Shown here: piece after piece, positions 16,235 to 40,069 of the stretch | How the letters are laid out: every line of letters starts with the position of its first letter | Position numbering within the stretch: position 1 is the stretch's first letter | From: Escherichia phage WPEC5 | Reading direction: 5' to 3' (one strand) | DNA: 64,000 bases | Sequence record: PV654397.1 | The notes under the pieces: generated by a model | What the model saw: the letters and a program-made list of their open reading frames with translations, nothing else | What the model was told of the DNA's origin: nothing | Databases searched by the model: none | Program-made: the position numbers and the translations under genes

Positions 16235-16267
16235 ATTATAGCAAAAAGGGCCGACCGAAGTCAACCC
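16235..16267 (-). promoter_or_regulatory. terminator-promoter cassette (hairpin GGGTTGACTTCGGTCGGCCC + TATAAT)
   Basis: on minus strand: UUCG-loop hairpin containing TTGACT, T-run, 18-nt spacer, TATAAT, then RBS of 15436..16206. Confidence 0.6.
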
Positions 16268-16274
16268 TTTTGTT

Positions 16275-17774
16275 TTATAAAATTACTTCACCAAAAATGC
16301 CATTGATATCACGTTCAATGATGTATTCACCTTCATGTTCTTCTAAGAACTTTTTAATGGCTTCATTAACTTTAGGACGATGCATGTTGTTGAATGTTTC
16401 AGTACATCCGTCACCTTTTTCATAATAACCACTTTTGTGATGTGGATTACCGCAGAACGCAATTGTATGTGTAATACGTTCTAACTCAGCAGCAAGATGC
16501 CCCCCATTGTCTTTGTTAAAGAAAATGGAAATTTCATTTTTCCAAAATACTTCAACTTGATATATTTTTTTAAAAGAACTATTAATGCGTTTCAAACGCT
16601 TATCGTTATCACCTGCAATACCGGCTTTATCTGATTCATTATATACATCGTTATGTATATAATAATAAGCTGTTTTGTCTTTTTTAAAACCACTTGGTGT
16701 TCTGTTCGGATGTCCTTGTCCTCGAAGGAATGCATTAGGTGTAATCTGAAACTCACCGAAATCAGGATCAATTATAGTTACATCTAAAAAAACAACAGAA
16801 CAATTTATTAAAGACGCGAAAGAAAAAAGAACTGATATTGATTTTGAATATAGTAAAGTTCTTTTTAAGTGGTAGTGGGCATCCTATCCGTGGTGGTTCA
16901 TCTAAAAAAACAACAGAACAATTTATTAAAGACGCGAAAGAAAAAAGAACTGATATTGATTTTGAATATAGTAAAGGTAAAGCCAATTATATTAATGCAT
17001 ATACAAAAGTAACTATAATTGATCCTGATTTCGGTGAGTTTCAGATTACACCTAATGCATTCCTTCGAGGACAAGGAGAACTCACCATATTCAGGATCTA
17101 TAACAGTTACTTTTGTTTTGTTATTAACATAGTTAACTTTACTATATTCAAAATCAATATCAGTTCTTTTTTCTTTCGCGTCTTTAATAAATTGTTCTGT
17201 TGTTTTTTTAGTTCGGATGTCCTTGTCCTCGAAGGAATGCATTAGGTGTAATCTGAAACTCACCGAAATCAGGATCAATTATAGTTACTTTTGTATTTGG
17301 CTTTACTATAATCATAATTAATATCAGTTCTTTTTTCCTTTCCTTCAGTGACGAATTGCTCTGTGGTTTTCGATTGTAATTTAATCTGGTCTTCAATTGC
17401 TCGTTTCGGATGTCCTTGTCCTCGAAGGAATGCATTAGGTGTAATCTGAAACTCACCGAAATCAGGATCAATTATAGTTACTTGGCTTTACTATAATCAT
17501 AATTAATATCAGTTCTTTTTTCCTTTCCTTCAGTGACGAATTGCTCTGTGGTTTTCGAACGTAATTTAATATTTTTTTGAATTGCTCGTTTCGGATGTCC
17601 TTGTCCTCGAAGGAATGCACTAGGTGTAATCTGAAACTCACCGAAATCAGGATCAATTATAGTTACTTTTGTATGTGCACTAACATAATCAACTTTACTA
17701 TAATCATAATTAATATCAGTTCTTTTTTCCTTTCCTTCAGCGACAAATTGTTCTGTGGTTTTTTTAACAGACAT
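16275..17774 (-). pseudogene. tandem-repeat protein gene, frame interrupted (about 55-aa modules KKTTEQFxxxGKEKRTDIxYDYSK...TKVTIIDPDFGEFQITPNAFLRGQGHP, plus C-terminal domain)
   Basis: successive minus-strand ORF fragments in different frames (17478..17774, 17208..17471, 16898..17278, 16275..16595) all encode the same module; about 170-bp DNA repeats. Confidence 0.5.
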
Positions 17775-18003
17775 TACTTAAAACCCCTTTCCAGTACTGA
17801 ACCCGTCCAGCACCATTAATCTTAGCTTGAATCTTATCTTTTTCGACAAGACCTTCTTTGAAATCAATGGAAGTATTATCGCACTGAATTACATCTAAGT
17901 CAAGTACTTCTTGTGTACTTAATGAAGTATTGTCTGCAATTTGTTGTAAAGTAATGATATCAGTACCGAAGAATTCTGCTAATCGTATAAAAGATAGTTT
18001 CAT
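17764..18003 (-). CDS. hypothetical protein (79 aa)
   Basis: minus-strand ORF directly downstream of promoter cassette. Confidence 0.5.
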   Translation of the reverse strand: MKLSFIRLAEFFGTDIITLQQIADNTSLSTQEVLDLDVIQCDNTSIDFKEGLVEKDKIQAKINGAGRVQYWKGVLSNVC

Positions 18004-18029
18004 GTATTACCTCTTGAGTTGATGAAATA

Positions 18030-18062
18030 ATTATAGCAAAAAGGGCTGACCGAAGTCAACCC
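18030..18062 (-). promoter_or_regulatory. terminator-promoter cassette
   Basis: perfect palindrome GGGTTGACTTCGGTCAGCCC + T-run + TATAAT. Confidence 0.6.
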
Positions 18063-18072
18063 TTTTTATGTG

Positions 18073-19860
18073 CTATTGTTTTACACCACCCCACTTTTCA
18101 TAGATCGATAAAATTTTTTCTAAATTAGTGATTGTAGTTGTTTCTGTATATCCATCTGGCATTTCTTTTTTAGACAAGATACCATTACCAAATAGTCTCT
18201 TGCATTCTTTTTCTGCTTCCTTACAATTTATCACAGTTGGGAAACTATATACACAAATTAGTTTTACTTTAAATAATGATTTTTTATTTTGTTGCTTAAC
18301 ACGTTTTCCTTTTTGTTTTTCAATACCATATTTTAAAGCAATAGGTAAATCGTTGTCTGAAATAATGTTAACATATGCATATTGCTGGGAATAACCTGCA
18401 CGCAATGGATGCCCACTACCTCTTAAAAAATCATCTGGTATAACACTGAACTCACCATATTCAGGATCTATAACAGTTACTTTTGTTTTGTTATTAACAT
18501 AGTTAACTTTACTATATTCAAAATAACTTTACTATATTCAAAATCAATATCAGTTCTTTTTTCTTTCGCGTCTTTAATAAATTGTTCTGTTGTTTTTTTA
18601 GCTTTACCTCCCCTTCTAGGATGCCCACAGCCACGTAAAAAACTATTAGGTGTAATATCGAACTCACCATATTCAGGATCTATAACAGTTACTTTTGTTT
18701 TGTTATTAACATAGTTAACTTTACTATATTCAAAATTCGCGTCTTTAATAAATTGTTCTGTTGTTTTTTTAGATGAACCACCACGGATAGGATGCCCACT
18801 ACCACTTAAAAAGCTTTTCGGTGTAATATCAAACTCACCAAATTCAGGATCAATAATAGTTACTTTTGTTTTAGTATTAATATAATTAACTTTGCTATAA
18901 TCAAAATCAATGTCAGATCTCTTTTCTTTTGCTTCTTTAATAAATTGTTCTGTTGTTTTTGTTTTTTTTACAATATCGTTATTAATAGATCTAGAAGGAT
19001 GCCCACTACCACTTAAAAAGTTGCTTGGTGTAACACTGAACTCACCATATTCAGGATCTATAATAGTTACTTTTGTTCTATAATTAACGTACTCCGCTTT
19101 ACTATATTCAAAATCAATATCAGTTCTTTTTTCTTTCGCGTCTTTAATAAATTGTTCTGTTGTTTTTTTAGATAGGTGTAATCTGAAACTCACCGAAATC
19201 AGGATCAATTATAGTTACTTTTGTATATGCATTAATATAATTGGCTTTACTATAATCATAATTAATATCAGTTCTTTTTTCCTTTCCTTCAGTGACGAAT
19301 TGCTCTGTGGTTTTCGATCCTTGTCCTCGAAGGAATGCATTAGGTGTAATCTGAAACTCACCGAAATCAGGATCAATTATAGTTACTTTTGTATGTGCAT
19401 TAATATAATTGGCTTTACTATAATCATAATTAATATCAGTTCTTTTTTCCTTTCCTTCAGTGACGAATTGTTCTGTGGTTTTCGATTGTGCTTGCATACT
19501 GTTTTTAATAGCTCGCATTGGATGTCCACCACCAAACAAAAAATCCGAAGGTGTAATCTGAAACTCACCGAAATCAGGATCAATTATAGTTACTTTTGTA
19601 TATGCATTAATATAATTGGCTTTACTCGCGTCTTTAATAAATTGTTCTGTTGTTTTTTTAGATGAACCACCACGGATAGGATGCCCACTACCACTTAAAA
19701 AGTGATTGGGTGTAATATCAAACTCACCAAATTCAGGATCAATAATAGTTACTTTTGTAAAAGAATTAATATAATTAACTTTACTATAATCAAAATCAAT
19801 GTCAGTTCTTTTTTCTTTTGCGTCTTTAATGAATTGTTCAGTTGTTTTTTTAGCTGGCAT
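18073..19860 (-). pseudogene. tandem-repeat protein gene, frame interrupted (about 10 modules + distinct C-terminal domain)
   Basis: ORFs 19168..19860, 18477..19208 and 18073..18405 are consecutive frames of one repeat-rich gene; a 20-bp direct duplication (AACTTTACTATATTCAAAAT x2, about 18515-18555) coincides with one frame break. Confidence 0.5.
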
Positions 19861-38976: not shown

Positions 38977-38977
38977 T

Positions 38978-39208
38978 TTACATTAATCCTTCTATGCTAC
39001 AACCAATAAGTACTTTTTTCACTTCAATAACTCGTACCAAATAGAATCCATTTGAAAAGTTAAAACTATACATTTGTACTAAGGCATCTGCTTCAGATTT
39101 CGCACGGATACATGATAGATATAGTTCTCGTATATCGTCATCCAACGATGCTTGTTTCTCGTCATTGATAACAATAGAACGAATCTCAAAACGAACACCA
39201 TAACTCAT
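38978..39208 (-). CDS. hypothetical protein
   Basis: packed minus-strand ORF. Confidence 0.5.
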   Translation of the reverse strand: MSYGVRFEIRSIVINDEKQASLDDDIRELYLSCIRAKSEADALVQMYSFNFSNGFYLVRVIEVKKVLIGCSIEGLM

Positions 39209-39414
39209 TCTGTTTGTCCAACAATTAGTTTTTCTTTAGTATTACTATTGTAACACCACATTAATTCTTCACCAACTGTTCTAAGTGAAACGCTGTTTAC
39301 TTGTTCATACGTACTGTCACGTACTGCAATGCATTGATTCATTGAATTCATTGGGGTGATTTGTACACCAGATTGTGGTGAAAGAGCAATAATTAAAAAG
39401 ATTACTGAATTCAT
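39205..39414 (-). CDS. secreted small protein
   Basis: signal-like N-terminus. Confidence 0.5.
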   Translation of the reverse strand: MNSVIFLIIALSPQSGVQITPMNSMNQCIAVRDSTYEQVNSVSLRTVGEELMWCYNSNTKEKLIVGQTE

Positions 39415-39479
39415 TAGATATTCCTCGATGGTTAATCATCCATCTCTTCGAGATGTCTGTTCGCTTCTAATACTACGTA

Positions 39480-40045
39480 TTCTACGCGAATGAATCATAA
39501 CTGTCAAGGACTTTTAATATTGACGGGATTTGAGGAAGGGATTTTTCTTCCCCCCGCACGGAGGGAAATTTGACGCTGATGGTATCAGAGCTATTGCATT
39601 GAAGATTACTCATAACGAGTGCGAAAGCGGGTCATCCTGTTTCTCTCTACTTCAGTTTCATATGACGGTCTACACTTTTAAACATAGTGTATCTTCATTA
39701 AGTATCTATGCAATCAAATACTTAATGTGAGTACTCAAATTTTGGACGCAACTTTCCTGTACAAAATTCGATAACTCTCCCTTAGATAATTCGTAAGGTG
39801 TTATCCTTATATGTCTATCGAGGAACCACCAGCTATCCTAACGTGGTTCTTTATACAGCCGCATTGCCGTGAGGGGTTCAAACTATGCCCACATCTAACG
39901 GGTTTCTTTTGCTGTTCGCTACAATGAAAAGCTCATCTATCCTTTACATTTTCAAGTGAAGTAGGGGAAGATTGTCAGTACCAGTACTGTCATTGTGATT
40001 GTACATAGATCATTGTATCACCATTAATAAATTTGTCCCATAAAA
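39480..40045 (-). other. ORF-free structured region (candidate ncRNA or long leader), strand inferred
   Basis: about 560 bp without a credible ORF in a region otherwise packed with genes; locally GC-richer with several stem-loops (e.g. GAACCAC...GTGGTTC). Confidence 0.4.
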
Positions 40046-40049
40046 AAAA

Positions 40050-40069
40050 GGGCTGACCGAAGTCAACCC
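40050..40069 (-). terminator. hairpin GGGTTGACTTCGGTCAGCCC + T-run
   Basis: perfect palindrome directly after sigma gene stop. Confidence 0.6.

Follow-up and report, generated by a model that had tools for sequence, protein, structure and literature searches.

In a 64,000-nucleotide stretch of Escherichia phage WPEC5 DNA (sequence record PV654397.1; termed here the window), ten sites on the minus strand carry nearly the same short cassette, in which a hairpin resembling an intrinsic terminator contains the -35 hexamer of a sigma70-like promoter. It is likely that these cassettes both terminate the upstream transcript and initiate the next one, a reading that was proposed in an earlier inspection of this DNA (the original prediction) and that is supported at the sequence level by the strand asymmetry of the hairpin, by covariation between its arms and by the spacing of the -10 element. 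As such, the cassettes appear to be promoter-coupled terminators of the promoter-early stem-loop (PeSL) type, situated within an early hyperplastic region of an Asteriusvirus jumbo phage.

Ten copies in one register

Both strands of the window were searched for GGGTTGACTTCGGTCRGCCC, allowing up to three mismatches. This search yields exactly ten sites, all of which lie between 16248 and 40069 on the minus (coding) strand (their starts are the low hairpin coordinates in Table 1); that is, the window has ten copies within 24 kb of its 64 kb, whereas 100 dinucleotide-preserving shuffles of the window contain none. The original estimate of about ten minus-strand copies therefore holds. A looser pattern (GGTTGNY-N4-RNCRRCC with one mismatch), which requires neither TTGAC nor a UUCG loop, adds no members to these ten. 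When the copies are aligned, the A-tract, the hairpin, TTTTTGC, TATAAT and YATTTCATCAAC form one conserved block; near-identity among copies spans ~45 nt, and the whole intergenic module ~70 nt. The element had been described as extending from the hairpin to the -10, and both belong to it, but the conserved block is longer, running beyond the -10 as ATTATTTCATCAAC.

The hairpin had also been placed directly after a stop codon. The distance is 7-21 nt in seven of the ten copies, and in two others (19916 and 31572) the TGA stop of the upstream ORF is the TGA within TTGAC itself, the orthologous genes being annotated likewise in Turkey3 and fEgEco12; for the copy at 20639, the upstream distance to the end of the closest open reading frame (ORF) of 40 aa or more is 93 nt. 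On the other side, the next ATG lies 39-60 nt past the hairpin in nine of the ten copies, seven of which have a recognisable Shine-Dalgarno (SD) sequence; this sequence is weak or absent at 27198 and 31572.

For statistical purposes, 122 distinct cassette copies, representing at least seven phage lineages, were assembled from the window, eight relatives and IMG/VR contigs, using search patterns that fixed the hairpin only.

The putative promoter half

Seven window copies contain TTGACT-18 nt-TATAAT (11/12 matches), six of them with TGn ahead of the -10, and the A-tract lies at the position of an UP element. The arrangement originally proposed--TTGACT followed after about 18 nt by a -10--thus describes these seven, but not the copy at 27198, which is non-standard (17 nt, TATACT). 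Among the 122 distinct copies, a match to TATAAT of at least 5/6 occurs at a spacer of 16-19 nt from TTGACT in 74%, as against 2-11% at eleven control offsets; where a -10 is present (111 copies), it is preceded by TGn in 89. Within the window, a -10-like hexamer accompanies 8/10 TTGAC hairpins versus 2/9 other minus-strand terminator-like hairpins, the count of nine being a rough comparison (the de-duplication in that scan dropped three cassette copies). The U-run ends 2 nt ahead of the -10 hexamer, which predicts ~11-13 nt from the termination site to the start site.

The site following the sigma-factor gene bears on the selection of TTGAC. In the window this site has a hairpin without a coupled -10; in 121Q and slurp01 it reads AAAAAAGGTTGGC-TTAT-GCCAACCTTTTTTT, so that a compensatory change from A-U to G-C keeps the arms paired, and TTGAC has become TTGGC. 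The loss of TTGAC at this promoter-less site supports its being selected as a -35.

Three of the ten window copies (25617, 27198 and 40050) are not standard early promoters. Those at 25617 and 40050 have no recognisable coupled -10 and appear to be terminators only, in agreement with the hairpin-only variants predicted at about 25618 and 40050; downstream of the latter (cassette 10) is a promoter-like site, GGGACA-17-TGaTACAAT. At 27198 the T4 late-promoter consensus TATAAATA overlaps a weak -10 ahead of a virion structural gene, and this copy therefore looks like the same terminator fused to a late promoter. TATAAATA occurs three times in the window versus 11.2 expected, always on the minus strand (27179-27186, 28421-28428 and 52745-52752), and its second site precedes another gene annotated as a structural protein. 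The octamer is, in other words, strongly avoided, and two of its three sites lie just upstream of annotated virion structural protein genes embedded in the early region.

These data bear on the alternative that the hairpins are terminators only, TTGAC and TATAAT being coincidences of AT-rich sequence or relics, and the downstream genes being expressed by read-through or from other promoters. This would fit the retention of TTGAC at 25617, 40050 and, in part, 27198, which are without a good sigma70 -10, and the abundance of hairpin-free consensus promoters in the region. It is nevertheless improbable, inasmuch as it predicts neither a -10 at fixed spacing (with TGn in most copies) nor the excess of -10-like hexamers at TTGAC hairpins over other hairpins, nor the change to TTGGC, with compensation, at precisely the orthologous site that has no promoter.

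The hairpin half

The hairpin has 8 bp and a tetraloop, which is UUCG in most copies, as first described, and UUCA in two (20639 and 27978). For the ten copies with their flanks, folding energies range from -12.7 to -19.5 kcal/mol (z -3.8 to -7.2), so that the calculation of folding energy bears out the predicted hairpin. The commonest 3' arm among the distinct copies, GUCAGCCC or GUCGGCCC, pairs with the 5' arm GGGUUGAC via U.G wobbles, and on the opposite strand these wobbles become C-A mismatches. Mean energies of the bare 20-nt hairpin are -12.1 kcal/mol for the sense versus -7.0 kcal/mol for the antisense strand, and the sense hairpin is the stronger in all 122 copies. In a covariation analysis of 97 distinct 32-mers, 96.7% of cells are paired, and 32 cells show double changes versus 6.1 in shuffles, with none of 500 shuffles reaching 32. 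Four pairs (G-C, A-U, U-A and C-G) are seen at the outer position. Opposite the invariant TTGAC bases, most of the variation is an exchange of A and G, which turns U-A into U.G. Because of the sense-strand G.U asymmetry and the compensatory changes of the outer pair, the hairpin is judged to be selected at the RNA level.

Selection at the RNA level is difficult to reconcile with the notion that the element is a DNA-level palindrome--an operator for an early-promoter repressor, the target of a homing endonuclease or recombinase, or a repeat resembling miniature inverted-repeat transposable elements (MITEs) or repetitive extragenic palindromes (REPs). The hairpin does overlap the -35 and spacer, where repressors usually bind; HNH endonuclease genes adjoin cassettes in some relatives (fEgEco12 g570, EcMJ_557); breakpoints between genomes cluster at cassettes (see below); and terminator palindromes can double as transcription-factor sites (bioRxiv 10.64898/2026.08.19.745784). 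Yet in its dominant form the element is no palindrome at the DNA level, since the T.G pairs can form in sense-strand RNA only; every copy is oriented with the genes; most cassettes are not beside endonuclease genes; and the identical hairpin is found in several taxa, including Straboviridae, Vequintavirinae and Eneladusvirus. REP- or MITE-like repeats would, moreover, be expected in the host, in either orientation and with terminal repeats or target duplications, whereas blastn found no match to the cassette in 5,426 complete E. coli genomes and chance-level matches only in plasmids, and the copies have neither terminal repeats nor target duplications. A DNA-level explanation accordingly has little to recommend it. 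On the basis of the same blastn searches, an origin of the cassette in the host or in plasmids was rejected.

As a terminator, the hairpin would be of the rho-independent kind, with a short loop on a GC-rich stem and a U-run on its 3' side. At least five T are present in the 8 nt 3' of the stem in 108/122 distinct copies, and at least five A in the 8 nt 5' of it likewise in 108/122, an A-tract lying ahead of every window copy. In the GenBank record of phage G17 the same hairpins are annotated as ARNOLD terminators, at ~-17 kcal/mol.

C(UUCG)G hairpins were reportedly found by Tuerk and colleagues, in 1988, to be unusually stable in T4 intergenic regions, and those are similar in their C-G-closed UUCG loop, their intergenic position and their occurrence in a large virulent phage; that work is said to have concerned RNA stability rather than a fused promoter. 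It is very unlikely, however, that the hairpin here serves instead to stabilize or process RNA (as a stem-loop that protects 3' ends or as a site for RNase III/E, to which read-through transcripts are cut or trimmed), for although the U-run of standard copies is only 5 nt, it follows the stem directly in nearly all copies, ARNOLD classes these hairpins as intrinsic terminators, and a PeSL stem-loop of RB49/phi1 terminated as well as rrnB T1 (PMC2839356); the two roles are, in any case, mutually compatible.

Breakpoints between related phages

Breakpoints were obtained by blastn of the window versus eight relatives and form 16 clusters between 12 and 42 kb. Cassette zones, each defined as the hairpin with 15 nt upstream and 45 nt downstream, total 800 nt, or 2.7% of this DNA, and contain five of the 16 clusters (16271-16298, 18065, 20663-20673, 27223 and 27954; P = 4.6e-5 under a uniform null). 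Repeatedly (18065, 27223) homology ends precisely at the 5' edge of the hairpin. The segment 27223-27954, which is bracketed by cassettes 7 and 8, has no alignment with 121Q, G17 or slurp01, in which the corresponding two cassettes are ~180 nt apart. What lies between the cassettes from 16248 to 20639 differs in every relative: fEgEco12 is empty there, and others have HNH endonucleases, a DUF4379 protein or other genes. More generally, the gene content between cassettes varies in every relative examined. Between orthologues, the hairpin and -10 core are the sole invariant part of the cassette zone. Cassettes and breakpoints are thus associated, and recombination presumably occurs inside the cassettes; the case for their serving as a recombination linker is evenly balanced. 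On either side of an indel at 37307-37629 lie two hairpin-free promoters with TTGACA...CAGTACTG...TATWAT in common (the shared octamer is described below), which suggests that promoter-promoter recombination also acts without the hairpin.

Several further features were noted in or near variable segments. An ORF at 37326-37619 is missing from fEgEco12 and CMSTMSU and has similar promoters on its flanks, at 37301-37329 and 37650-37677. Other intergenic terminator-like hairpins on the minus strand, at 29554-29576 and 30137-30162, lie beside breakpoints at 29529-29534 and 30057; the first is AGGGTTGGTATAATACCAACCCT, with TATAAT within its loop. In the most variable inter-cassette segment, 16275-17774 (minus strand) has short overlapping ORFs with TTG starts, is weakly similar in DNA sequence to the gene for the 121Q gp221 endonuclease, and looks like a decayed or frameshifted gene. 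At 18477-19860 (minus strand), adjacent ORFs of 243 and 230 aa share internal repeats with one another and with a Turkey3 DUF4379 protein, giving many off-diagonal blastn matches (65-85% identity); this is repeat-rich cargo between cassettes.

Proposed mechanism

The favored reading, in which each cassette is both terminator and promoter, can be spelled out as follows. A polymerase arriving from upstream would read an A-rich stretch, then GGGUUGAC-UUCG-GUCRGCCC and then U5-8, and the C(UUCG)G-capped 8-bp hairpin together with the U-run would cause release of the transcript ~11-13 nt ahead of the next start. The same DNA would constitute a host sigma70 promoter, in which the A-tract acts as UP element, the -35 is made up of the 5'-arm TTGAC and the base that opens the loop, the 3' arm and T-run provide the spacer of 17-18 nt, TGnTATAAT is an extended -10 and the A lying 7 nt downstream is the +1, followed by a leader of ~22 nt with GAGG and ATG. 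Because one cassette would both terminate and initiate, each would act as an insulator for a unit of 0.7-4 kb and start transcription anew. By analogy with known promoter-coupled terminators, termination and initiation are probably coupled, such that promoter-bound polymerase would strengthen termination and the terminator would shield the promoter from occlusion. Finally, the near-identical ~45-nt copies could act as short homology patches by which modules are gained, lost or swapped between related phages.

A number of observations weigh against parts of this proposal. On the terminator side, the U-run of standard copies is short (5 U, then GC), and a simple terminator scan listed only 4/10 copies, an under-calling that arises because extension of the stem through A/T pairs consumes the T-run. 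Stop codons lie 7-10 nt ahead of the hairpin, or inside it, and a terminating ribosome could hinder folding, so that termination may be partial. On the promoter side, the 18-nt spacer is one base above the optimum, and recognition by host sigma70 is assumed, given that the phage has a sigma70-like factor of its own. As for recombination, the enrichment of breakpoints is marginal (P = 0.05) when breakpoints are limited to gene junctions (10 of ~75 of which have a cassette), and the whole 60-nt cassette zone is no more conserved between orthologues than the flanking genes.

Occurrence in other phages

Exact matches to the 18-mer GGTTGACTTCGGTCRRCC were found in 47 stretches of IMG/VR contigs, and its carriers include RaK2, CBB, 121Q, fHe-Yen9-04, Serratia phage BF, CR3, Aeromonas phage 65 and Vibrio phage VH7D, as well as a genome that we take to be GAP32. 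Nearly all of these copies have the A-tract, the U-run and a TGn -10 in the same register, followed by SD and ATG. A 61-nt cassette query matches 144 phage records; among the matches listed, all are myoviruses of at least 142 kb, with hosts that include Escherichia, Vibrio, Klebsiella, Aeromonas, Pectobacterium, Salmonella, Cronobacter, Erwinia, Enterobacter, Yersinia and others, and with lineages that include Straboviridae (Schizotequatrovirus, Ishigurovirus), Vequintavirinae (Certrevirus), Eneladusvirus and Asteriusvirus. The element is thus present in at least seven lineages of large virulent phages: Asteriusvirus, RaK2, CBB, GAP32, Eneladusvirus, Certrevirus and two Straboviridae genera. 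In 121Q, seven of eight exact copies fall within 14 kb of the 348-kb genome, and in both 121Q and CBB a cassette again precedes denV, which in the window would be driven by cassette 4.

The likeness of the hairpin across these phages may be due to convergence, since nearly every base of it has a functional reason: TTGAC is the -35, its C closes C(UUCG)G, and GGG/CCC is the clamp before the U-run. The choice of U.G wobble, on the other hand, is constant (GTCAG, never GTCGA), which could reflect common descent or selection against an antisense TTGAC. Promoter halves differ by lineage, Asteriusvirus having TATAAT at 18 nt, and RaK2 and GAP32 TATTAT at 17 nt. Over the 32 nt after the hairpin, similarity is 0.52 within genomes versus 0.45 between genomes, a slight difference on which lineage-specific promoter halves were rejected and by which concerted evolution is but weakly indicated. 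A search for transfer of cassettes and cargo between families was likewise unsuccessful: by tblastn, two variable cargo ORFs (24482-24895 and 27239-27535) have homologues only in Asteriusvirus-like Escherichia and Salmonella phages, and there is therefore no sign of recent transfer of modules between families.

In its boldest form, the proposal would be that all these elements are one ancient or horizontally spread 'universal' terminator-promoter module, at once a portable linker and an occupancy-dependent terminator, which would terminate tightly for as long as the promoter is occupied by host sigma70 polymerase and become leaky after the shut-off of early promoters. This is doubtful. If it were true, an occupancy-dependent terminator would amount to a built-in switch from early to late expression, and the module to a portable recombination linker between otherwise unrelated phages.

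In other jumbo phages (121Q at ~144.9 kb, CBB and others) a cassette may be followed, rather than by a gene, by a conserved non-coding sequence, ...CATTGGCAGATA..GCC..AGCCCAYWGGGTGCGG..., after which there is often another promoter. This sequence, which is absent from the window and gave no match in Rfam, could be a small RNA.

Relation to known systems

PeSLs, as described in the T4-like phages RB49 and phi1, consist of strong sigma70-like promoters and stem-loop terminators located between a stop codon and the next SD/ATG (PMC2839356). Their stem-loops terminate and their promoters are very strong (Arbiol et al. 2010, PMC2839356); they cluster in hyperplastic regions, mark the boundaries of indels and form mini-circles, and in one of their five subclasses the stem-loop overlaps the -35 (PMC2839356). 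PeSLs also occur in PST/T4 and in nt-1/KVP40 (Comeau et al. 2014, PMC4122927), the stem-loop consensus of the latter being A3-4 G3-loop-C3 T3-4 (PMC4122927). The cassettes described here are similar in being intergenic modules of an AT-rich stretch, a sigma70-like -35 and -10, a G...C stem-loop terminator and SD/ATG; in occurring as many same-sense copies among small ORFs of unknown function; in being tied to indels and replacements between close relatives; and in having their stem-loop over the -35, as does the PeSL subclass just mentioned. The nt-1/KVP40 consensus fits this hairpin, the exact 18-mer occurs in the KVP40-like phage VH7D, and the late-promoter copy at 27198 is paralleled by the promoter-middle (PmSL) variants of nt-1 (PMC4122927).

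There are also differences. Asteriusvirus (~350-385 kb, with no family assignment) lies outside Straboviridae, where PeSLs were described; the exact hairpin is found as well in the Straboviridae members VH7D and Aeromonas phage 65. The cassettes keep to one fixed register, versus five variable arrangements in RB49/phi1, and are nearly identical over ~45 nt. Activity and mini-circles are reported for the RB49/phi1 PeSLs; for the present element, promoter and terminator activity are predicted from sequence.

The second precedent is provided by bacterial promoter-coupled terminators (Fletcher et al., bioRxiv 10.64898/2026.08.19.745784), in which the termination site is commonly ~10 bp upstream of the start site, DNA of the stem-loop functions as the -35, the -10 is assisted by the T-tract, and promoter-bound polymerase raises termination when the two sites are no more than 35 bp apart. 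Shared with these are the tandem genes, the stem-loop that would act as -35, the T-tract just upstream of the -10, the upstream A-tract and the shortened intergenic regions. Those elements, however, are diverse chromosomal sequences from Acinetobacter, E. coli and Bacillus, for which RNA ends were mapped and tests made in vitro, and phages are not discussed in that preprint; here a single repeated sequence is common to phage lineages, and the distance of ~11-13 nt is predicted from sequence.

Parts of this element have probably been listed before. For phage CBB, RpoD-like early promoters with an UP-like element have been predicted, and only the TGAAACG and ATAAATA promoter motifs are tied to GAP32 (PMC5259590); for the Certrevirus phages CB7 and CR3, the promoter is given as AAAA-N3-4-TGTTGAC-N17-19-TATAAT (PMC7344957). 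In the available portions of both papers promoters and terminators stand in separate lists, and a -35 inside a hairpin is not remarked upon (PMC5259590, PMC7344957). The exact hairpin-promoter is found in CBB, GAP32 and CR3, clustered in presumed early regions, and the RpoD-like promoters of those papers are probably physically identical with it. In the literature on Asteriusvirus and Rak2-like phages, of which coverage was incomplete and left out the GAP32 paper, neither a description of the fused element nor any transcriptome was found. The design is already known, from PeSLs and promoter-coupled terminators, and the fused element itself is undescribed in the Asteriusvirus/Rak2-like literature found.

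Genome context and other repeats

The window belongs to an Asteriusvirus jumbo coliphage of the 121Q/PBECO4 group (genomes of ~350-385 kb). It is 98-99% identical to Escherichia phages Turkey3, fEgEco12, vB_Ec-M-J and BF17 (over 72-78% of a 16-kb test stretch) and 82-91% identical to 121Q, the PBECO4-like slurp01 and G17. From ~12.9 kb on, the minus strand is the coding one, and most of its genes are small ORFs without known function; a phage sigma70-like factor with regions 2 and 3 is encoded at 40077-41045. Between 15 and 55 kb there are 24 sigma70-like promoter matches of at least 11/12, and because all 24 are on the minus strand, this fits an early region transcribed by host polymerase. 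The hairpin-coupled promoters are a subset of these consensus matches, many others being hairpin-free.

Within the window, an Rfam search identified tRNAs only. A tRNA cluster at 52786-57365 (minus strand; Thr, Asn, Met and Ser, with a weaker fifth Rfam match at 57287-57365) is located among consensus sigma70-like promoters. At 39614-40040 (minus strand), 3' of the sigma-factor terminator and of the promoter-like site that follows it, is a stretch of ~440 nt that lacks ORFs of 40 aa or more, gives no match in Rfam and may represent a non-coding RNA; all relatives examined have a similar gap, of ~650-720 nt, in their CDS annotation.

The 8-nt palindrome CAGTACTG occurs at 35 sites between 6883 and 60130 versus 0.96 expected, with no shuffle coming close; its sites (for example 22480, 37318, 37656, 56323 and 56744) are both coding and intergenic. 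At four or more of these sites it occupies the spacer of a consensus promoter without a hairpin, TTGAC(A/T)-N8-10-CAGTACTG-TATAAT, and it may be bound by a phage factor or mark a second promoter class. A second terminator family, on the plus strand, has the form GCCAGTACT-N3-4-GTACTGGC followed by TTTTCTTT; one copy comes after each plus-strand RCC1-like ('DNA condensation') paralogue, and its arms include the CAGTAC half of the palindrome.

Table 1. Positions of the cassettes and of the second terminator family in the window, with predicted parts and adjacent genes
Feature	Position	Strand	Hairpin	-35	-10	Other parts and adjacent genes
Cassette 1	16207..16274	-	16248-16267	TTGACT 16259-16264	TATAAT 16235-16240	U-run 16243-16247; TGC 16241-16243; predicted +1 (A) ~16228; SD GAGG 16215-16218; ATG 16206; upstream stop codon 16275-16277, with A-tract between stop and hairpin; 68 nt intergenic in total; flanked by ORF 16275-16595 and AAA-ATPase-like gene 15436-16206
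Cassette 2	18004..18072	-	18043-18062	18054-18059	18030-18035	Then 79-aa ORF 17764-18003; module 17771-18065 kept in six relatives, homology stopping exactly at the hairpin 5' edge
Cassette 3	19861..19943	-	19916-19935	19927-19932	19903-19908	Upstream ORF 19929-20144; downstream ORF 19168-19860
Cassette 4	20598..20668	-	20639-20658 (UUCA loop)	20650-20655	20626-20631	Precedes denV (pyrimidine-dimer glycosylase, 20160-20597; Pfam Pyr_excise)
Cassette 5	24896..24961	-	24935-24954	24946-24951	24922-24927	Then 137-aa ORF 24482-24895
Cassette 6	25575..25645	-	25617-25636 (perfect palindrome, outer pair A-U)		TAAATA at this position; no sigma70-type -10	Seven T after hairpin; 3' of 503-aa virion structural gene 25646-27157
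Cassette 7	27158..27238	-	27198-27217	TTGACT, 17 nt from -10	TATACT 27186-27191	TATAAATA 27179-27186; precedes 503-aa gene 25646-27157, annotated as virion structural protein in 121Q and fEgEco12
Cassette 8	27918..28004	-	27978-27997 (UUCA loop)	27989-27994	27965-27970, without TGn	Precedes 37-aa ORF 27804-27917
Cassette 9	31530..31599	-	31572-31591 (outer pair A-U)	31583-31588	31559-31564	Upstream TGA 31585-31587; downstream ORF 31089-31529
Cassette 10	40040..40076	-	40050-40069			Predicted terminator only; eight T after hairpin; 7 nt past stop of phage sigma-factor gene 40077-41045
Second terminator family	654-672, 1917-1935, 2726-2746, 3936-3954, 8647-8665, 11015-11033, 12900-12922	+				

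Implications

If the favored reading is correct, PeSL-type fusion of terminator and promoter extends beyond T4-like phages to the Rak2-like and Asteriusvirus jumbo phages. To the known design these cassettes would add a single fixed register, a stop codon within the -35 (two copies), a late-promoter variant and an identical hairpin across unrelated large phages. The pattern offers a sequence rule by which early transcription units, and likely recombination hot spots, may be annotated in these genomes. The sigma70, late-promoter and promoter-less variants form a natural set for testing how promoter occupancy controls termination, and the ~70-bp module could be used as a compact part for insulating genes and restarting transcription in phage or synthetic-biology constructs. 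More generally, the occurrence of one hairpin in so many large phages poses an evolutionary question, namely whether it reflects convergence under tight dual constraints or the spread of a regulatory cassette.

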